A stretch of DNA of 64,000 nucleotides from Escherichia phage ECML-117: sequence record JX128258; one strand, given 5' to 3'. Below, piece by piece: positions 1,246 to 43,958 of the stretch. The translations under genes were made by a program, and so were the position numbers. The notes below the pieces were generated by a model that worked only from the letters and a program-made list of their open reading frames with translations, was not told where the DNA came from and did no database searches. Numbering within the stretch: position 1 is the stretch's first letter; the number at the start of each line of letters is the position of its first letter.

Positions 1246-1694
1246 TGGGTAAACGCCTTATCGCCGCTGGTTGGGCCATACCGAAGTGGGGTCATCGTGC
1301 GCATTACTTTGACGAAGGAGAAGTGCAAAGCCTTTGTGGTCGCGCAACGTATTTCGGTGATGAGCGCGTCAGCGGCGATTATATCGACTCGCTTTTAGGC
1401 AAAGGTGATTGCAAGAAGTGTCAGAATATATTAAGGGATATTCTTACGCAAAAAGGATTGCTTGAGCTTGATGAATCGGAAGAAGTAATTGAACTTAAGC
1501 TGGAAGCCAATCACCTTATTAATATGTTCAAGAACTATTACGCAACTAATATGCGCTCAAAAATGAGCGAGGAAGTAATAGAAAAGGTGTTCACCTACAA
1601 TCCGCTAAGGATGAATAAAACCAAATTGAAGAAGTTTAATATAATGTTAAGGAAAGAATTTAAAAGGCTAGGGGTGAAGAATTTTATATTTTAA
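1242..1694 (+). CDS. hypothetical protein (150 aa) with N-terminal Cys cluster
   Basis: Start overlaps previous stop (ATGATGG); Cys at C32/C57/C60 suggests a small metal-binding domain; AT-rich C-terminal half. Confidence 0.5.
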   Translation: MMGKRLIAAGWAIPKWGHRAHYFDEGEVQSLCGRATYFGDERVSGDYIDSLLGKGDCKKCQNILRDILTQKGLLELDESEEVIELKLEANHLINMFKNYYATNMRSKMSEEVIEKVFTYNPLRMNKTKLKKFNIMLRKEFKRLGVKNFIF

Positions 1695-1711
1695 TAGTGA
1701 TTAATGTTAAG

Positions 1712-1735
1712 AGGGCCGATTGGCCCTTTTTGTTT
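1712..1735 (+). terminator. rho-independent terminator
   Basis: AGGGCC-GATT-GGCCCT hairpin followed by TTTTTGTTTG, directly after the 1242..1694 stop. Confidence 0.6.
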
Positions 1736-2019
1736 GCCCGTGGGGTGTGAGTCTTTATTATCGGATAAAGCGATTGATTTGTGTAAATCTATTAGAGGAT
1801 GGTGGGGAATGAGGATTGTGACGTGATTTGTGTGTCTTGAATATGTGTGCGGATTTGGAAGAATATTGTACTGTGGTGCTGTGGGATTGGAGAGGGAATC
1901 ACTAGGTTTTGGGGCGTGTACCGTGGTGTGTGGGCCTGTAGGCTGCGCCGTCTCTGGGATTGCCGCCTGAAATTTAAAAGGAGATATAGTTAGCTGGCTA
2001 ACCTTACGTATAGAATTTA

Positions 2020-2310
2020 AGCGTATAATGACGTAAGATTTGGACCTATCCGTAGTTCACTCCACACACTTCTATGGTGCGCCGCGACTGGGTTCAGTGG
2101 TACATCTTACGGATGATACGGATGATACGCGTCGCCGCTATACTTTATACAACTTTGAAAAAAACAATTAACTCCATTTTGAATTAATTTAAATTAATTT
2201 TTTTCTACATCCTCATACTTATACTAAACTTATGTTTATACGTATTATCCGTAAGATATAAGTAAAAACAAAGACTTGCGGCAATACGGATGATACGTCA
2301 TGATACGCTT
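2020..2310 (+). promoter_or_regulatory. iteron/AT-rich regulatory element, copy A (candidate origin or operator-promoter module)
   Basis: CGTATAATGACGTA at 2022-2035; 45-nt block at 2104-2150 containing tandem GGATGATACG 9-10-mers; AT-rich core 2150-2250; further CGGATGATACG copies at 2285-2306; near-identical block at 18102-18148. Confidence 0.6.
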
Positions 2311-2535
2311 CAACCAGCCAGCAGCGGCTAAGTCATTGATTTGCATAACAAGCGGCGAAAGGGATGGATTTCTTTTATACGTATCAAACAGTACACCACG
2401 CACCACGGTCCGCTATTCATTCAGCACTATGATTTGTGTACTTTTACAGCCAATTTGAACATCAATCTGCACTTGAATATAATGTTCATTCATTGTATAA
2501 TTCACACTATTAATTTGCACTATGGGATTTGCACT

Positions 2536-3009
2536 ATGAGTCAAGATTATGTAGCAATGCCTGAAGACTTTGAAGACCCGCGATTTGCAGAGCATAATCA
2601 GGCATTATTCGATGAGTTCATTGACCTTGTTATTCAGGGCCATGACATGCGCGCAGCTTTTGCACTAGTATTTGGCATGGAGGTTGCGACCGATAACTAC
2701 ACTGGCCAGCGAATCCTCTGCACGCAACGCAATCCGTACTACAAGATGCGCTACAAAAAGCGTATGGAAGAGATGCCATTGAAGGAATTGTGGAGTGTAA
2801 AGAGTTCCATCCACAATTTAGTGAAGCTTGTGCGTGATCCAGAAGTCGCAGCATCAGCCAAGCTTAATGCCATTCGTGAACTGAATATCATCTACGGCAT
2901 CACGATGATTGATGAGAATGGCAATAGTAAAATGGGCCGTTCCATGGACGATTTCTACAAGGATTTTGGAGAGGCAGCCAAAGAGGGTGAGCAATTCTCC
3001 CGCCACTAG
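2536..3009 (+). CDS. hypothetical protein (157 aa)
   Basis: In-frame ATG 2536 inside ORF-track frame 2341..3009; the upstream part of that frame is AT-rich repeat DNA; no clear SD; start overlaps repeat copy 2. Confidence 0.45.
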   Translation: MSQDYVAMPEDFEDPRFAEHNQALFDEFIDLVIQGHDMRAAFALVFGMEVATDNYTGQRILCTQRNPYYKMRYKKRMEEMPLKELWSVKSSIHNLVKLVRDPEVAASAKLNAIRELNIIYGITMIDENGNSKMGRSMDDFYKDFGEAAKEGEQFSRH

Positions 3010-3028
3010 CCAATTTGCACTATAAAAC

Positions 3029-3062
3029 GGCCCTAGAACACATTTTCTCCACTTCTAGGGCC
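3029..3062 (+). other. perfect 10-bp stem-loop (possible terminator or RNA element)
   Basis: GGCCCTAGAA ... TTCTAGGGCC with 14-nt loop, 20 nt after the 2536..3009 stop; no T-run. Confidence 0.45.
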
Positions 3063-3407
3063 ATCGGTAATACGACGGGGAAGGTTACAACCATAAACGC
3101 TTTAGAAAGTGTATTATTATAAGTCATCTTTTAGTCACTTTACGTAACAATTTACGACCTTCCGCCGTCCAGTCGAACGACTCCACCAGCAGATTTGCAC
3201 TATAACCTAAGACGATGCGCCCTTTCTCGTTATCGACCCGCCAACAAGTCTCGAATAGCATTCGATTTGCACTATTAACTATCGCCGCAACGCGCGTTGG
3301 GTAAGCGCAATTTGCACTATGGTCGTAAAGGGATAAGGTGCGACCACTTCCGATGGACAACGTAGCGATGAGAATAAGCGTATTCATAAGCCACCAATTT
3401 GCACTAT

Positions 3408-3431
3408 GAAAAGCGACCCCGAAGGGCCGCC
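3408..3431 (-). terminator. candidate rho-independent terminator (minus strand)
   Basis: On the minus strand GCGGCCC-TTCG-GGGTCGC imperfect hairpin followed by TTTTC, just after the 3438..4064 stop. Confidence 0.4.
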
Positions 3432-3437
3432 ATTCGA

Positions 3438-4064
3438 TTAGATAATCTGGAATGTGTAGGACTTGTTGCCGAACTCAAAGGTCAAGCGTCCAGCTTCTTT
3501 AAGCTTCATGCGGAAGCGAATGTGCTTGCTATCCGGTAATCCCAGCGCGGCGAACGCTACGCGGACCGATTTGAACTCGCCTACACCTTCGACCATGACG
3601 CCGTTACGGGTGAGACGCTTTTGCGCCACTTCCTTGTTATCCCAACTTTTTGCAATACCTTCGCTATTCGAACGGCGATGGGAAGGACTGGCAATTTTAT
3701 CCGCGCCAACCGGAGCATCATTCAGGCCGCTTTTAACGAAGGCTTCATATTCTTCGTCGGTCATCGCGTCGAGTTCTTCCTGGGTCGGCTCCGCTTTTTT
3801 AACGACCGCACGCGCTTTGTGCGTTTTTACATCGCTGGACACTTCCTCGCGCGGCTTCGCGTCTGGGATGGGCGATTCGTTGGACGGCTCATCGAGCGCG
3901 TTTAAGGACTCGATTAACGCGATGACGCGAGTCTCAGCGGTGCGACGGTCCGCAAACTTCTTAATCGGTTTTGAGCCGGAGTTAGCGTTATAGAATGCAA
4001 CGAGGTCGGCGGTCTTAGTTGCGATAACGTCGCCGCTAGTAGAGAAACGATTCAAGCTAACCAT
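3438..4064 (-). CDS. hypothetical early protein (208 aa) with acidic/lysine-rich linker
   Basis: ORF with AGGAG RBS; driven by the leftward promoter at 4134-4161; CpG-rich codon usage unlike the structural genes. Confidence 0.6.
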   Translation of the reverse strand: MVSLNRFSTSGDVIATKTADLVAFYNANSGSKPIKKFADRRTAETRVIALIESLNALDEPSNESPIPDAKPREEVSSDVKTHKARAVVKKAEPTQEELDAMTDEEYEAFVKSGLNDAPVGADKIASPSHRRSNSEGIAKSWDNKEVAQKRLTRNGVMVEGVGEFKSVRVAFAALGLPDSKHIRFRMKLKEAGRLTFEFGNKSYTFQII

Positions 4065-4133
4065 AATAAACTCCTAGTTTGGGAGCGGCGTTAACGACCT
4101 ATTCGCTAACTCATCCCGTCCCGATATGAGTAC

Positions 4134-4161
4134 ATTATAATATAGTGTAGAAAAAAGTAAA
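4134..4161 (-). promoter_or_regulatory. sigma70-like promoter (leftward)
   Basis: Minus strand: TTTACT (-35) - 16 nt - TATAAT (-10); -35 embedded in CGAAAAAGTGCTTTACT, the same 17-mer that precedes the promoter at 4604. Confidence 0.5.
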
Positions 4162-4205
4162 GCACTTTTTCGATAAAAATGCGATAAATTATTTTATCTT
4201 TTTTC

Positions 4206-4233
4206 TTTACTTCTTCGTACACTCGCGTATACT
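4206..4233 (+). promoter_or_regulatory. sigma70-like promoter (rightward)
   Basis: TTTACT - 16 nt - TATACT upstream of gene 4290; shares CTTTACTTCTTCGTACACT with the promoter at 4604. Confidence 0.5.
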
Positions 4234-4289
4234 TGTTTATATCGAGACGGGCGATGGCCCTTCCTTCTACTAGCATCGGGAGCTTTATT

Positions 4290-4592
4290 ATGACTACTTT
4301 AATCTCTTCCATCCTTACTTACGACGAAGACCGTTTAACCGTTCGCTCTCTTATCGCCGCCGTTAACGCGGAACTAGAATCTAGCGCCATTAAGGTCCGC
4401 GCGGTCGCCTTCATCGGCCTTTCCTTCGACGATATGAAGTACGCCGAACGTAGCGCCATCCGCTTCGCGAAGACCGACGACGAAGCCGTTACCCTTATCG
4501 AGACGGTTACGCCGCGCGGCGAAGCGTTAATTATCGTCGAGTATATCGACGTAGAAGGCGATAAATCTTATAAACATTTTATCGCAGAATGA
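4290..4592 (+). CDS. small acidic protein (100 aa), early gene
   Basis: ATG 4290 with GGGAG RBS; net acidic; N-terminus MTTLISSI resembles the next gene's MITLAAI. Confidence 0.55.
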   Translation: MTTLISSILTYDEDRLTVRSLIAAVNAELESSAIKVRAVAFIGLSFDDMKYAERSAIRFAKTDDEAVTLIETVTPRGEALIIVEYIDVEGDKSYKHFIAE

Positions 4593-4603
4593 CGAAAAAG
4601 TGC

Positions 4604-4632
4604 TTTACTTCTTCGTACACTAAGACTATAAT
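4604..4632 (+). promoter_or_regulatory. sigma70-like promoter (rightward)
   Basis: TTTACT - 17 nt - TATAAT; preceded by CGAAAAAGTG upstream element. Confidence 0.55.
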
Positions 4633-4699
4633 GTTTTATATCGAGAGGGGATGAGGTAGCGAATAGGTCGCTACCCTCCCGACTAACTAGGAGAATATT

Positions 4700-4990
4700 A
4701 TGATTACTTTAGCCGCTATCCGTTCCGCTCGCGTCGAAACTTCCGAAAACTCTAACGTATTTGGCGAAACCTTAGAGAGCGTTTATCTCTCTAACGTAGA
4801 CGCAACTATCGAGTCTATTTATGAGCCGATCAACTTTCTCGACCTTTACAAGTATCGCGACGAGGACATCGTATCCTACCGCGTAACGATTAACGGCTTC
4901 GTTTATACGATCACCGAAATCGGCGGCGAATATATAGCTGTACCGCAACTCGGCGGCGAAGTAACTTACTTTAAAATCGTAAGCCTTTAA
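4700..4990 (+). CDS. small acidic protein (96 aa), early gene
   Basis: AGGAGAA RBS; net acidic; possible paralogue of the 4290 gene. Confidence 0.55.
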   Translation: MITLAAIRSARVETSENSNVFGETLESVYLSNVDATIESIYEPINFLDLYKYRDEDIVSYRVTINGFVYTITEIGGEYIAVPQLGGEVTYFKIVSL

Positions 4991-5001
4991 GGAGAAGAAA
5001 G

Positions 5002-5211
5002 ATGACTAATATGAATAACTCTCTTAACGCGCGCGCCCATCGCACCGCCGTAATCGATATGTTTCGCGAGCTTAAGGAATTATGCGATAATATGAACGCG
5101 ATGTTATCCATCGGCGGCTGGGGATACGAAGAAGAAGTTAAATACGCGGTTATGCGTCGCCGTCGCGATAACGTCCTTGGACAAATTAAACGCGCCGGAT
5201 TATTCCTTTAA
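5002..5211 (+). CDS. small protein (69 aa)
   Basis: AAGGAGAAG RBS; followed by a terminator. Confidence 0.5.
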   Translation: MTNMNNSLNARAHRTAVIDMFRELKELCDNMNAMLSIGGWGYEEEVKYAVMRRRRDNVLGQIKRAGLFL

Positions 5212-5237
5212 TTATAATCACCCACCGTTACTAATAG

Positions 5238-5262
5238 GCCGCGCTTAGTCGCGGCTTTTCTT
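5238..5262 (+). terminator. rho-independent terminator
   Basis: GCCGCG-CTTAGT-CGCGGC hairpin followed by TTTTCTT. Confidence 0.55.
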
Positions 5263-5381
5263 CGTCCCTATCTCAATGCGCTTCTCCGCGAAAATTCCTT
5301 TATCCTTCCCTTCGTCGTCGCATAATCTTCGTCGAGATGCTCCTTAGTTCGCATAACGGGTATTACGTTAAATGGAGAACA

Positions 5382-5457
5382 TCGCGTAAGTCCTTGTTTT
5401 ATATAGACACCTATATCGGACCGTTAAGGCGGGTCGCGTAAGTCGTTGTTTTATAAA
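5382..5457 (+). repeat. direct repeat, 2 x 24 bp (TCGCGTAAGTCNTTGTTTTATANA)
   Basis: Copies at 5382-5405 and 5434-5457 in non-coding DNA. Confidence 0.6.
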
Positions 5458-5733
5458 GGCGCAAAACTTTCCCTTCGTTCCGAACTAAAACGAGAAATAT
5501 GCGGACCCTTCGCCCGAAAATAGTACGCATGCGAAATTACCGACATCTAGAATAATCCCCGCCGATATTATCCTACACGCAATCATTAGCCTTCGAATCA
5601 TTATGCTTCATATTATTATGCATCGAATCATTCGCTTTCGAATTGTAACGCTGGAAACTGTAACGGCGATTGATTATTGCGTTCGTGTGGTTTTTATGGC
5701 ATGGGTCTTTTGGTGCGTTTTGGTACTTGATGA

Positions 5734-5845
5734 AATTTGCAGTACACTAATCAAAATACGACACATTTGGTCCACTAACTTTTCAAAGAAAAAGTCCTAG
5801 ACAGTACCGTACTATTTTGTGCCCACAGTAAATTTGCAGTACACT
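5734..5845 (+). repeat. direct repeat, 2 x 16-mer AAATTTGCAGTACACT
   Basis: Copies at 5734-5748 and 5830-5845; core ATTTGCA shared with the 11-mer array at 2513-3407. Confidence 0.6.
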
Positions 5846-5913
5846 CCTGCGCGGCAGGCAAAGAAAGGGCCGCCACAGCGACCCACGATTCACGGTTAAA
5901 TCAGCAACACCCA

Positions 5914-6324
5914 CTATTCGCTCTTATGGGCATCACCAAAGCCATCCGCAATCTGGCTGATCAATGATTCAATGGACACAGTTTTACCAATTGATCGAGC
6001 GGTAATAGCAAGCATATTATCAATCAAACCATGATTGGATGCATATGGTCCAGGTTTTGAATCATCTTCAGGACAGCCAAAAAGCTGGTCGCGCAAACTT
6101 TCGAGAGAACGCTCAATATTTTCCAGCTTCTCTTCTAAATCAGATTGGCGACGTAAAACCCATGTTAAGTCTCGGTTGCCGACTTCCAACCCATCAGAAT
6201 CGCAAGCTGGAACGTCAATTTTGATGCTGCCACCAAAGGCCATTCCGCTGCCTTTAGTATATGTGTTGTGAATAGAATCATTCTTATTTGACATATCATT
6301 ACCTTTCATGAGGGTGATTAACAA
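5914..6324 (-). CDS. hypothetical protein (about 126-136 aa)
   Basis: ORF-track ORF; start probably at internal Met (MSNKND...). Confidence 0.5.
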   Translation of the reverse strand: MLITLMKGNDMSNKNDSIHNTYTKGSGMAFGGSIKIDVPACDSDGLEVGNRDLTWVLRRQSDLEEKLENIERSLESLRDQLFGCPEDDSKPGPYASNHGLIDNMLAITARSIGKTVSIESLISQIADGFGDAHKSE

Positions 6325-18018: not shown

Positions 18019-18049
18019 ATCGCCTGGCAATGGATTGTCGCAGGATTTT

Positions 18050-18330
18050 ACGCGTATAATGACGTATCATCCGTATCAAGTAAGTAGTTGTTTTCAAAAG
18101 AATCTTACGGATGATACGGATGATACGCGTTGCCGCGATACTTTATAGGAATTCAAATAAATTAATTTAAAATTATATATCTAATTTAATTTTATTTTTT
18201 TATAAACTCTTATATATGAAAAGTATCCGTATCATCCGTATCATCCGTAGCACACCAGTGATAGCGCGGCTTATACACCGATACGGATAAAAAATACGCC
18301 TCATCTTATCCGTATCATCCGTATCACACT
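18050..18330 (+). promoter_or_regulatory. iteron/AT-rich regulatory element, copy B
   Basis: CGTATAATGACGTA at 18053-18066; 45-nt block at 18102-18148 (about 44/47 identity to 2104-2150); CCGTATCATCCGTATC arrays at 18063-18077, 18225-18248 and 18309-18326; AT-rich core 18146-18225. Confidence 0.6.
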
Positions 18331-18383
18331 AATTAAGGCGCGGCTATATCGGCTGTTATACATATTCAAACCATAATTATTGT

Positions 18384-43097: not shown

Positions 43098-43958
43098 TTA
43101 AAACTCTTCTGCGTCAGTCGGAGTTTCGTTGACAGGACCAGCGGCACCGCTTGCTTCTTCCTGCTTGCTGCGGTCAATGTTAACGTTGCCGCCAACTACG
43201 TCGTTGTGGAATGCTTTGGCGACTTCATACAGACCTTTGTCCTGCACCAGACCTTCCAGCTCAAACTTCAGAACTGACCAGGTGTTGCCGTCTTTGGACT
43301 GAGACGCAGTACCCATGCGAACGATGTTCATAAAGGTCGGCGGAGTTTTCAGGCCCTGCGGAGTCTGAACTTTCTTCTGCTGCAGAGCGGTCATCAGCAT
43401 GCGAGACGGCTTGATCATGGAAGAAGTCAGAGACAGCATTGCGCTACCAAATTCACCAGTTTCTTCGTTTAACAGGATCACAAAGTGGTTACGTGTATCT
43501 GCGTAGTAAGGTGATTTCTTCTCGTGCACTTTGCCGTTTTCATCCGGCACAAACACCTTACCGTTGATCTCAACAGCGCGGCCTGCCGCGACTTCTGCAT
43601 CAACGTGCTCTTTGGTGAATTCACCTTTAAAGCCTTTATCGTCTGACTCGCGACCGCCCCAAAGGATGAAGGTGCGTTTGAATGCGCAAGGGATGATCTG
43701 CACGCCTTTCTTGCCGTCATACAACTCACCAGTAACTGTGTTGTACAGCATACCAGCTTTTGCGCCAGGCACGTGTTTTGGATCATCTTCGTCGACCATC
43801 GGAGACATCTTTTGCAGTACAACGATAAAAGGAATGGCATAAGCGTCGGCATCGGCACCTTCAAAACCAGCGCCAAAATCGGTCATATCGACAAAATCAG
43901 CCATAGCGGACATCTGGGTGTTTTTCACTGCAACTTCGGTAGTTTCTTTCTTAGACAT
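43098..43958 (-). CDS. hypothetical replication/recombination-module protein (286 aa)
   Basis: ORF in the replication module; acidic C-terminal tail; no motif recognised. Confidence 0.4.
   Translation of the reverse strand: MSKKETTEVAVKNTQMSAMADFVDMTDFGAGFEGADADAYAIPFIVVLQKMSPMVDEDDPKHVPGAKAGMLYNTVTGELYDGKKGVQIIPCAFKRTFILWGGRESDDKGFKGEFTKEHVDAEVAAGRAVEINGKVFVPDENGKVHEKKSPYYADTRNHFVILLNEETGEFGSAMLSLTSSMIKPSRMLMTALQQKKVQTPQGLKTPPTFMNIVRMGTASQSKDGNTWSVLKFELEGLVQDKGLYEVAKAFHNDVVGGNVNIDRSKQEEASGAAGPVNETPTDAEEF

Follow-up and report, generated by a model that had tools for sequence, protein, structure and literature searches.

A short DNA word repeated on one strand beside the small terminase gene of a Wifcevirus coliphage, a candidate signal for packaging or DNA-end handling

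In pac and cos phages, the site recognized by the small terminase subunit (TerS) usually lies in or beside terS. Short repeated words occur at this gene in lambda (the cosB R-sites), in SPP1 (the pacL and pacR boxes) and in P22 and Sf6 (pac within terS). Other enzymes that move along DNA also use short oriented words: Chi (5'-GCTGGTGG-3') is read by translocating RecBCD, and KOPS and SRS direct the DNA motors FtsK and SpoIIIE. Phages with direct terminal repeats (DTRs) offer a further comparison in Repeat Region 3, the DRD repeats and the paired DnaA boxes of T5-like phages, and in the SRL and SRR heptamer arrays that flank the T7 terminal repeat, which we take to be comparable to the array described here. 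How small terminases find viral DNA is a long-open problem, in vitro binding being weak or non-specific in most systems (PMC9611059, where P22, SPP1 and PaP3 are reviewed). The TerS of phage E217, whose solved structure is a decamer, showed no appreciable DNA binding in vitro, and its overexpression lowers E217 infectivity (PMC9611059). For phages with long direct terminal repeats, hardly any cis signals have been mapped.

The window analysed here, 64,000 nucleotides of record JX128258, is from a Wifcevirus, a PB1-like E. coli myovirus. By number of repeats, its top-ranking 11-mer is ATTTGCACTAT, which occurs seven times on the plus strand and nowhere else in the 64-kb window, against 0.02 copies expected from shuffles; the initial annotation's count of seven same-strand copies is borne out. 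These copies, a core-only copy and two variant copies are listed below.

2513..2523, plus strand: motif copy 1, ATTTGCACTAT, in the terS leader at about +5 from the P2 start; opens a 14-bp tandem pair and is kept in 12 of 12 Wifcevirus genomes
2527..2537, plus strand: motif copy 2, its final bases overlapping the terS ATG (2536)
2659..2667, plus strand: core-only copy TTTGCACTA within terS, at a position homologous to TCTGCACTA in the terS of the divergent relative L090
3013..3023, plus strand: motif copy 3, 3 nt past the terS stop, adjoining the T-run of the minus-strand terminator at 3029-3062
3193..3203, plus strand: motif copy 4, antisense in ORF87, read as YSAN
3265..3275, plus strand: motif copy 5, in ORF87, read as NSAN
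3310..3320, plus strand: motif copy 6, in ORF87, read as HSAN
3397..3407, plus strand: motif copy 7, preceded by CCACCA, with the ORF87 start on one side and the gp208 terminator (3411-3432, minus strand) on the other
5733..5748, plus strand: variant copy AAATTTGCAGTACACT, 24 bp past the right end of the terminal repeat
5830..5845, plus strand: second variant copy AAATTTGCAGTACACT, 121 bp past the right end of the terminal repeat

The 9-nt core, TTTGCA(C/G)TA or TTTGCASTA, most commonly RATTTGCACTAT, is found 11 times on the plus strand of the 64-kb window and never on the minus strand (1.46 expected). In a weight matrix built from 32 distinct sites, information ends about 2 nt either side of this core; all 32 sites lie on one strand, with 8-12 copies against 0.03-0.1 expected. 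Copies are found in two genes and in spacers, four of the seven exact copies being non-coding. Spacings of the exact copies are irregular (14, 486, 180, 72, 45 and 87 bp), and 14-bp tandem pairs have arisen three times independently. The multiples of three among these distances (486, 180, 72, 45, 87) largely reflect a TAG stop in one antisense frame, together with chance. The 45-bp spacing of copies 5 and 6 recurs in the relative L146. At copy 2, half of the Wifcevirus genus has a T insertion (ATTTTGCACTAT), and at copy 4 one subclade has ATTCGCACTAT, a synonymous change. A longer consensus proposed earlier, with CCA(C)CAGC ahead of the word, fits only three of the seven copies (Chi-like CCACTAGC at 3003-3010 before copy 3, exact CCACCAGC at 3183-3190 before copy 4, and CCACCA at 3389 before copy 7); it is the complement of Chi, and the weight matrix has no such flank. 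Both copies of the related 16-mer stand, the first starting at 5733 instead of 5734. Seen on the minus strand, the copy at 5830 lies just downstream of a terminator at 5867-5884.

The features that surround the array are as follows.

1990..2320, no strand: cut-site module with an AT-rich core, an 18-bp palindrome AATTAATTTAAATTAATT (2182-2199) and flanking TACGGATGATACG repeats
2176..5710, no strand: direct terminal repeat of about 3.5 kb, present once in the window, left end 2176 and right end 5710
2455..2501, plus strand: a pair of consensus-like sigma-70 promoters that overlap, TTGAAC-17-TATAAT and TTGAAT-17-TATAAT, both directed into terS and motif copies 1 and 2
2536..3009, plus strand: terS, small terminase subunit, by profile match, phrog_4783 and the Mansfield annotation
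3029..3062, minus strand: intrinsic terminator hairpin for leftward transcription (z = -4.97; WFH annotation), followed by GUUUUAUAG on the minus strand
3124..3387, minus strand: ORF87, conserved small protein with a hydrophobic N-terminus, three motif copies inside
3411..3432, minus strand: intrinsic terminator of gp208, leftward (z = -3.53; WFH annotation)
3438..4064, minus strand: gp208, phrog_4730, a family of unknown function

The left genome end is placed where the Mansfield and Ro157lw records begin (window 2176), with WFC and SP13 in register, and the right end where the end of the WFH record coincides with the end of the DTR feature that the Mansfield record carries from PhageTerm, at the junction of ...gggtcttt and tggtgcg (supporting papers PMC6753283, PMC6563267). 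This left end falls within the cut-site module, of which a paralogous near-copy at 18030-18350 has neither a reported terminus nor an adjacent array. The array spans 337-1231 bp inside the left end, or to about 1545 bp in most relatives, its nearest copy lying 337 bp from the cut. Motif copies are found only to the right of both cut sites, with none on the minus strand and no mirror image. A strong early promoter is present three times in the Wifcevirus terminal repeat, together with small early genes.

The array brackets terS, with copies on both sides of 2536-3009. A profile of four homologs matches PDB 7UXE, 'Small terminase' (10 chains), at E=1.4e-71, and the protein is 39% identical to Pbunavirus proteins, the E217 record among them. 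Comparison of gp208 with PDB and Pfam gave no informative match; a 36-nt patch of this gene (window 3688-3725) carries two extra copies 14 bp apart, at about 3694/3708, in most other Wifcevirus. Five copies had been placed in a 430-bp gap between convergent genes. The argument drawn from such a gap fails because a conserved gene, ORF87, occupies most of it and holds three of the five copies (3193, 3265, 3310). It is a real gene: among 12 Wifcevirus genomes, 22 of its 30 variable sites are at codon position 3, and homologs are present in divergent relatives.

Compared with cosB and pac, the locus has the same setting, with copies at and beside terS and the left end (2176) near; it shares the closeness to a genome-end cut, the position on what would be the packaged side and the use of several, presumably weak, sites that would act together. 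It differs in its 8-14 copies, irregular over 0.7-1.2 kb, mostly antisense in coding DNA and in one orientation; in the distance of more than 300 bp from the cut to the nearest candidate site; in its 3.5-kb direct terminal repeat, where the others have cos or headful ends; and in having a homolog, E217 TerS, that did not bind DNA in vitro. With Chi, the motif shares a short, asymmetric and strand-specific form, indifference to coding context, over-representation and co-orientation relative to a DNA end, and genuine Chi complements are interleaved in the same orientation. Unlike Chi, it has a different sequence and no known reader, is restricted to a single zone of kilobase scale and has no mirror image beyond the cut. 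The T5-like and T7 elements are likewise conserved arrays of short direct repeats, with a putative function, inside a DTR or across its boundary, in a repeat that also carries the first-expressed genes. Both kinds of array lie in untranslated DNA and are compact or tandem, whereas the motif is dispersed, lies in genes and is conserved at the expense of codon choice; against the T5 DnaA boxes, it fails the consensus at position 9. KOPS and SRS are also short oriented words in coding DNA, but they form chromosome-wide skews, while the motif is a local cluster in a 68-kb phage without a linked motor.

Evidence that the array matters as DNA comes from ORF87. Across homologs from four lineages, the motif codons are identical in four of four cases, as compared to none of ten other four-way conserved degenerate codons; in copy 5, all four codons (AAT AGT GCA AAT) are the same in all four lineages. 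At one ORF87 site the motif is even held in another reading frame, encoding YSAN in the window and VVQN in L090. Retention at synonymous sites together with this change of frame implies that selection acts on the DNA. Three ORF87 copies encode xSAN and one copy in gp208 of relatives encodes DSAN; SAN is preceded by differing residues (H, N, Y, D) whose codon is always NAT, and the amino-acid sequence does not explain the conservation of the motif. Within the Wifcevirus genus, motif columns show no significant excess of conservation over the flanking columns (4/55 versus 46/373, p=0.37), a test that is uninformative because divergence there is too low; with the divergent relatives it becomes decisive. 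The motif is a real, strand-polar, cis-acting DNA signal under nucleotide-level selection. It marks the terS-proximal part of the direct terminal repeat, and its role is most likely in genome packaging or DNA-end handling.

Wifcevirus coliphages and their relatives have 8-14 copies of the motif, all on one strand. Among three divergent metagenomic relatives (L090, L146 and L151), copy numbers are 12 (in L146), 8 and 5, with none on the opposite strand, where shuffles would give about 0.1 or less. Similar density throughout related genomes, which would have spoken against a dedicated array, was not what we found: in 12 Wifcevirus genomes and the three divergent relatives, the motif is confined to the same zone. 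Individual copies turn over among close relatives. Scans of IMG/VR and metagenomes for two copies within 20-60 nt gave relevant matches in Wifcevirus, L090, L146 and L151 only, most other matches being unrelated 9-nt tandem repeats in giant-virus contigs, plus the tail of an SSB gene. Two Myosmarvirus relatives, MTx (with a DTR predicted by PhageTerm) and the MyoSmar-like L047, have three co-oriented copies of a different 22-mer in the same place after terS. No comparable array was seen around terS of PB1, tabernarius, FoX7, BcepF1, PCSE1, L045 or L048; of these, PB1 is the Pbunavirus locus examined, and Pbunavirus genomes are reported to be circularly permuted (PMC12345254). In the literature searched we found no earlier description of the array: the 11-mer and its complement returned only primers, and the repeats go unmentioned in the papers on Wifcevirus, vB_Eco4M-7 and Mansfield.

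The initial annotation had suggested a protein-binding array (packaging, partition or initiator sites) or promoters for a non-coding transcript. A recognition array at the DNA level is upheld by the nucleotide-level conservation, the strict polarity, the neighbouring terS and the nearby physical genome end, and packaging is still its likeliest use; the partition, initiator and promoter options were not sustained. The repeats are candidate directional, multi-copy recognition sites for the packaging machinery, either the TerS ring alone or the TerS-TerL holoenzyme. Tentative as it is, this is the single most likely reading, and from it we infer the terminase as reader, the direction of packaging and a licensing role. 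The terminase would cut concatemers in the AT-rich module at 2175/2176, and an array found only on the side to be packaged could tell the enzyme which new end to keep. Its one-sidedness could also set the direction of translocation, like cosB in lambda or pacL/pacR in SPP1, with many weak co-oriented sites standing in for one strong site. The 14-bp tandem pairs could engage adjacent subunits of a decameric ring, and the two variant copies just to the right of 5710/5711 would position a second, end-forming cleavage.

Packaging recognition is favoured because a directional signal needs one-sidedness, and the motif is one-sided while Chi-type words are mirrored. A licensing element also fits since the module copy at 18030-18350 has neither reported terminus nor adjacent array. 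Further support comes from the 22-mer array after terS in Myosmarvirus and the DTR of MTx, and from PB1, which lacks an array in a genus with circularly permuted genomes. Several observations may count against it. The homologous TerS of E217 did not appreciably bind DNA in vitro (PMC9611059). The motif stays constant while TerS seems to vary: the proteins of the three motif-sharing lineages appear only about half identical, judged by eye from translations, and the aligned segment assumed to be the DNA-binding helix reads RAAFALVFG, HSALRLTFG and YQAMRLVFG. The repeats that flank the cut site, unlike the motif, change completely between lineages, as a site co-evolving with TerS would be predicted to do. 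The 337-bp distance from the left cut and the irregular spacings (14-486 bp) also weigh against packaging, and the association with Chi complements points to RecBCD biology instead. One such complement is a fixed feature of the array.

3183..3190, plus strand: Chi complement CCACCAGC, with Chi itself on the minus strand; conserved in 12 of 12 genomes

By the established polarity of Chi, this site would act on RecBCD that enters from the left end of the genome. Exact Chi complements are enriched on the motif strand relative to the other strand in L146 (9 versus 1) and L090 (4 versus 0), where shuffles would give fewer than 0.1, and the motif copies are interleaved with these co-oriented words. 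Composite elements, CCACCAGC followed after 1-2 nt by the motif, recur at window 3183, at L090 165, and at L090 1117 / L151 426, with the reverse order (motif, then Chi complement) at L090 681. Such a pattern suggests a companion of Chi, a second polar word for a helicase-nuclease that enters the left end, although we consider this improbable. The reader may be RecBCD itself, a phage-modified RecBCD or a polar roadblock bound to the motif, and the role may be to limit degradation of the linear genome, whether incoming or replicating, and to steer the terminal repeat to RecA-dependent circularisation or concatemers. In keeping with this, the motif is short, asymmetric, one-stranded and dense across coding and non-coding DNA, its copies turn over, and exact Chi complements share its strand and zone in the orientation active from the left end. 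The motif does not match Chi in sequence (TTTGCA(C/G)TA against GCTGGTGG), however, and the real Chi complements are separate neighbours; what the two have in common is behaviour, namely strand polarity, over-representation and indifference to coding context. To our knowledge, no E. coli enzyme reads the motif. Chi-type sequences are mirrored around the left cut and the motif is not, and Myosmarvirus retains a Chi cluster (4 complements in the first 1.3 kb of MTx and 4 in 350 bp of L047, <0.1 expected) without the motif. The Chi-motif adjacencies are also not all independent, because some occupy homologous positions at which Chi overlaps the ribosome-binding site of ORF87. A further reading seems equally improbable: a new Chi-like or KOPS-like polar word, read on one strand by a DNA-tracking enzyme from the left end, which may be the packaging motor or a RecBCD re-programmed or blocked by a phage factor. 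If true, the polar word and the flanking Chi cluster would together label the terminal repeat as 'self' and give end processing its direction, and a phage-specified polar signal system would override codon choice in the genes it crosses.

Slightly less probable still is a role as operators or roadblocks for a sequence-specific DNA-binding regulator, whether of the clade or of the host. The pair of copies at +5 to +29 would turn off both strong terS promoters or time their activity, and the downstream copies would be auxiliary sites or polar roadblocks where rightward terS transcription meets leftward early transcription head-on. Two copies do lie directly downstream of the overlapping consensus-like promoters, one of them over the terS start codon, and in L090 a copy lies across part of the -10 element from which terS is transcribed. 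Three copies (3013, 3397 and 5830) fall immediately past minus-strand terminators, the first two directly after the T-runs of intrinsic ones, and the 14-bp tandem pairs suggest cooperative binding. The loss of E217 infectivity on TerS overexpression makes tight control plausible (PMC9611059). Regulators rarely need 8-14 sites in strict single orientation over 0.7-1.2 kb of coding DNA, and no copies occur in the second late-gene regulatory module (18.0-18.4 kb). No candidate reader was found; gp69, the sole annotated 'regulator' of the repeat, is accessory and occurs in only seven Wifcevirus records.

Control of DNA entry, akin to the injection stop proposed for T5, appears quite unlikely. The array, close to the inner edge of the terminal repeat on the side that enters, would halt or pace genome transfer once the early genes of the repeat are inside. 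Terminal repeats of T5 hold conserved dense repeat regions near or over their inner boundary, with nine DRD direct repeats and paired DnaA boxes (bioRxiv 10.1101/866236). The Wifcevirus repeat, with its three early-promoter copies and small early genes, would place the array just beyond the early genes if the right end enters first; the polarity of Chi argues that the exposed end is the left. We know of no two-step DNA transfer in this phage family, and the T5 model is itself unproven. The motif reaches 7/9 of the DnaA-box consensus (TT(A/T)TNCACA) in its best register and 8/9 in TTTTGCACT variants, but position 9 is T and not A in all 32 sites, 7 of the 32 have G at position 8, and DnaA does not account for the invariant TA tail. 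Nor do origin iterons or partition sites fit: spacings are irregular, copies lie within genes, no initiator gene is adjacent, and the annotation of the relative Bas99 gives no hint of an initiator or partition protein.

It is very improbable that the copies are promoters from which host RNA polymerase, modified by a phage factor, makes antisense or non-coding transcripts. The 'TAT' tail of the motif often runs into a -10-like hexamer (TATAAA at 3021, TATAAC at 3201, TACACT in both variant copies), and a class of promoter motifs other than sigma-70 is described for a relative, Pbunavirus 14-1 (PMC10914365). Against this, none of the 17 sites called by a sigma-70 scan of 1650-6000 coincides with a copy, the 32-site matrix has no conserved positions and no fixed-distance element downstream of the core, and the last core base is variable (T/C/G). 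The motif is missing upstream of every middle or late gene in the 64 kb, and copies lie as near as 14 bp, with 12 within 700 bp in L146. No structured RNA was found in the region: Rfam gave just two sub-threshold matches, both away from the array, and the fold is not unusually stable (z-score -1.81). By eye, sigma-54, extended -10 and MotA-type promoters fitted no better: GG is missing at -24 (matrix positions -9/-8), the TG is out of register, and no -10 follows downstream. Informal comparison with host-factor consensuses gave no convincing match to IHF, PurR, CytR, MarA, TrpR, a LexA half-site, Tus-Ter or the lambda Int arm site CAGTCACTAT.

Strand-specific nick sites, as in T5 or the LUZ24/tf-type Pseudomonas phages, merit equally little weight. 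Such nicks are characterized by a consensus word on one strand, and the reverse complement TA(C/G)TGCAAA may loosely resemble TACT/RTGMC; the sequence match is poor, known nick sites span whole genomes instead of one-kilobase clusters, and we are aware of no nicks reported for this family. Least credible of all is a by-product of a repeated SAN peptide or of chance local duplication without DNA-level function, to which the xSAN of ORF87, the DSAN of gp208 in relatives and an unrelated metagenomic SSB gene with two copies (NSAN/DSAN) lend some colour, and which is contradicted by motif codons that stay invariant (NAT included) where other conserved residues vary synonymously, by the VVQN frame in L090, by the four non-coding copies and by a shared frame that owes much to the TAG stop in one of three frames.

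The motif offers a sharply defined, evolution-validated candidate signal in a family with a solved TerS structure, that of the E217 homolog. A genome-rebooting system has been published for vB_Eco4M-7 (PMC11074155), and the structure and this system together make the question directly testable. The co-oriented Chi cluster suggests how phages without an annotated RecBCD inhibitor might survive RecBCD and circularise via their repeat. As Wifcevirus and their Pbunavirus relatives are potential agents of therapy and biocontrol, it matters for phage engineering which cis elements must be spared from recoding.

The 11-mer ATTTGCACTAT occurs seven times in the window, on the + strand only (0.02 copies expected from shuffles), and is its most repeated 11-mer. 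The initial annotation placed all seven correctly (copies 1-7, at 2513, 2527, 3013, 3193, 3265, 3310 and 3397); of its two positions for a related 16-mer, AAATTTGCAGTACACT, 5830 was right and 5734 should read 5733. The core TTTGCASTA is found 11 times on the + strand and never on the - strand, against 1.46 expected, and 10 of the 11 sites fall in 2514-5841. The lone match outside the terminal-repeat zone, TTTGCAGTA at 43811-43819 (+), fits the ~1.5 chance matches expected. A matrix from 32 distinct sites reads c-R-(A/T)-TTTGCA-(C/G)-TA-(T/C/G), the flanks beyond carrying no information, and tandem pairs of the motif spaced by 14 bp have three independent occurrences.

Window 1700-5900 is 94-97% identical to ~27 genomes of Wifcevirus, PB1-like E. 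coli myoviruses such as Mansfield, WFH, WFC, Ro157lw and the BASEL phages Bas98-101. A direct terminal repeat (DTR) of 3,673 bp was predicted by PhageTerm in Mansfield (PMC6753283), and repeats of ~3.7 kb were described in WFC and WFH (PMC6563267). The Mansfield and Ro157lw records, which open at the physical end of the genome, have window 2176 as their first base, and WFC and SP13 are in register; the common junction ...gggtcttt/tggtgcg (window 5710/5711) is both the Mansfield DTR end and the WFH record end. Given this record start and shared end junction, a single DTR copy spans 2176-5710, and the array sits in its left third. The motif occurs only to the right of both cuts, 337-1231 bp from 2176 (to ~1545 bp in relatives), with variant copies 24 and 121 bp right of 5710. 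It is confined to the part of the DTR near the small-terminase gene (terS) and to the far side of the right DTR boundary.

Features around the array
1740-1970, + strand: GT-rich, Chi-like sequence just outside the left end (also the last 400 bp of locus L173)
2455-2501, + strand: two overlapping consensus-like sigma-70 promoters ahead of terS, reading inward ~280-325 bp from the left end
2536-3009, + strand: terS (four-homolog profile against PDB 7UXE, 'Small terminase', E=1.4e-71)
3124-3387, - strand: ORF87
4134-4161 (-), 4206-4233 (+), 4604-4632 (+): three copies, in the terminal repeat, of a strong early promoter, TTTACT-16/17-TATAAT (AAAAGTGCTTTACTTCTTCGTACACT...TATAAT)

PDB 7UXE was deposited with ten chains, and the solved TerS of the Pbunavirus E217 is a decamer (PMC9611059). 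The terS product has homologs in Pbunavirus (39% identity), in Myosmarvirus and elsewhere. The 430-bp gap between convergent genes in which much of the array had been thought to lie is not empty: it holds ORF87, which houses copies 4-6. In 12 genomes, codon position 3 of ORF87 holds 22 of 30 variable sites, and homologs are present in divergent relatives. The small, conserved product has a hydrophobic N-terminus and a C-x-Y...CWR pattern that is also conserved; it matches no Pfam or PHROG family.

Comparison with divergent relatives showed that selection acts on the motif at the nucleotide level, as a strand-polar DNA word conserved in one clade. A metagenome scan followed by BLAST yielded three contigs (L146, L090 and L151) that keep the gene order terS-ORF87-gp208, with widely diverged terS translations. 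By the relaxed core T[TC]TGCA[CG]TA, the motif occurs 12 times in L146 (in 700 bp), eight times in L090 and five times in L151, where ~0.1 or fewer are expected, and never on the opposite strand. In a codon alignment of ORF87 homologs, all four codons of AAT AGT GCA AAT are the same across four lineages; the codon was kept at 4/4 motif residues vs 0/10 other four-way conserved degenerate residues. At a second ORF87 site the motif is retained, displaced by two codons, and at a third the frame differs (GTA GTG CAA AAT, VVQN, in L090 vs TAT AGT GCA AAT, YSAN, in the window). The residue preceding 'SAN' is H, N, Y or D, its codon always NAT. Because codons are fixed, the frame shifts and NAT is constant while the residue varies, it is the nucleotide word that is conserved and not the peptide; the three SAN tripeptides of ORF87 appear to be dictated by the opposite-strand DNA motif. 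The array holds up as a real feature and as functional DNA.

Within Wifcevirus, an alignment of 12 genomes showed that copies are mostly retained and each individually dispensable. Half of the genus has a T insertion in copy 2, copy 4 reads ATTCGCACTAT in one subclade, and copies 5 and 6 are mutated in Mansfield and F13, respectively. Variable columns numbered 4/55 vs 46/373 (p=0.37), a divergence too low for a conservation test. In most genomes a 36-nt patch of the gp208 gene (window 3688-3725) holds two extra copies of the motif at a spacing of 14 bp (CATTTTGCACTACGCAATTTGCACTAT); the window and vB_Eco4M-7 have another patch of equal length there (amino acids NDSANCVVQNGT vs NDAPVGADKIAS). 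About 14 positions in this patch separate these two from all other Wifcevirus genomes, between nearly identical flanks, and the common version alters 11 amino acids in a lineage-specific linker; the patch looks like a recombinational swap.

As to function, we tentatively favour recognition by the packaging machinery, with the multiple copies serving as a directional signal. The array would license the cut-site module close by and direct the terminase to the side that is to be packaged. This reading is favoured because the array is one-sided and lies beside terS and the genome end, because a paralogous cut-site module (18030-18350) is unlicensed, and because an analogous array is found in the DTR-type Serratia phage MTx and is absent in PB1. 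The left cut falls inside an AT-rich module of ~300 bp (1990-2320), with an 18-bp palindrome, AATTAATTTAAATTAATT, in its AT-rich core six bp inside the genome end, a TATAAT element and flanking TACGGATGATACG repeats, tandem and inverted; the close paralog lies upstream of head genes (head-protease gene). Relatives retain the AT-rich core and swap the flanking repeats (GGTTAT/ATAACC in L146; ATATCGGC/TATAACGG in PCSE1). The module could act as a shared control region for late genes, as a terminase cut site or as an origin.

In the same place after terS, Myosmarvirus (MTx, L005 951-1093; the MyoSmar-like locus L047, 3509-3639) repeats a different 22-mer, AAAAAAATAAGCATGCTTTGTA, three times in a single orientation, and this 22-mer includes the palindrome AAGCATGCTT. 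The trio corresponds in position to the Wifcevirus array, and the DTR of MTx is PhageTerm-predicted. Around terS in PB1, tabernarius, FoX7, BcepF1, PCSE1 and two IMG/VR relatives there is no comparable array, and Pbunavirus genomes are reported to be circularly permuted (PMC12345254). Against a packaging signal, the TerS homolog of E217 showed no appreciable DNA binding in vitro (PMC9611059), the motif stays constant while TerS diverges, including the aligned segment assumed to be its DNA-binding region, and >300 bp separate the cut from the nearest copy. The initial proposal of a protein-binding array, possibly for packaging, was thus a fair one, though its intergenic and promoter arguments fail. 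The array is well suited to experiment, since the structure of a TerS homolog has been solved and a method for genome rebooting is available.

We ranked the rivals by likelihood: a Chi-companion signal, operator or roadblock sites, an entry-stop signal, promoters and nick sites, and a by-product. The first, in which the motif would serve end protection or recombination, is the less probable beside packaging. The CCACCAGC flank described in the initial annotation is the Chi complement, several copies abutting the motif (window 3183; L090 165, 681 and 1117). Exact Chi complements (CCACCAGC) are strongly enriched on the same strand and in the same zone as the motif (L146, 9 vs 1; L090, 4 vs 0), with four in the first 1.3 kb of MTx and four in 350 bp of L047; <0.1 are expected in each of these loci.

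Chi complements, + strand
Window: 3183-3190 (and 3003-3010, Chi-like)
L146 (reverse complement): 1821-3652
L090: 165-1117
L005 (MTx): 179-1276
L047: 3653-3993

By the known polarity of Chi, copies oriented as in the array zone are active on RecBCD that enters from the left end of the genome. Left of the cut, Wifcevirus and MTx carry the GT-rich, Chi-like sequence on the + strand, so Chi-type sequence is mirrored about the cut and the motif is not.

Operator or roadblock sites controlling terS and convergent early transcription are rather unlikely. With the promoters at 2455-2501 upstream of terS, copies 1 and 2 fall in the first ~30 nt of its transcript, the latter overlapping the start codon. 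Copies 3 and 7 each come directly after the T-run of an intrinsic terminator on the minus strand, the variant at 5830 also follows a minus-strand terminator, and the early promoter at 4134-4161 (-) is the source of leftward early transcription. Copy 1 provides the ATG of a five-codon mini-ORF, MGFAL (2521-2539), and the stop codon of this ORF shares bases with the terS ATG (ATGA). Where the extra T is present, it puts the copy 1 ATG into the terS frame, adding MGFCT; the annotated terS start differs among records. The early-promoter spacer element GTACACT also ends the variant copies at 5733 and 5830. Also in the terminal repeat, a 69-aa 'transcriptional regulator' (phrog_10377; 5002-5211, +) looks like a horizontally acquired accessory gene, being present in only seven Wifcevirus records and otherwise in ~300 Klebsiella Webervirus genomes (40-46% identity).

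An entry-stop signal, by analogy with T5, would be improbable. Promoters are very unlikely: no copy qualifies as a sigma-70-type promoter, no conserved downstream element follows, and the word is absent from all other gene-upstream regions in 64 kb, so it is not a general middle or late promoter. Nick sites are just as doubtful. Every copy mismatches the DnaA-box consensus at position 9, the spacing is too irregular for iterons, and at the RNA level the array showed no Rfam family or unusual fold. Other public pairs of close 11-mers (L016 4737-4780; L011, L013, L026; L018-L025) are unrelated, one group being an SSB C-terminal tail encoding NSAN...DSAN and the rest being (TTGCACTAT)n, a 9-nt unit repeated in tandem in giant-virus-like contigs. 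The literature searched yielded no report of the word, and the Wifcevirus papers do not mention it. That it is a by-product of peptide or chance is scarcely credible.

In several enterobacterial relatives the exact Chi complements cluster immediately inside the left genome end, and GT-rich, Chi-like sequence lies immediately outside it, so the polarity of Chi appears to reverse where the terminase cuts. Such a reversal could shield the two new ends from RecBCD and promote the joining of terminal repeats by RecA.
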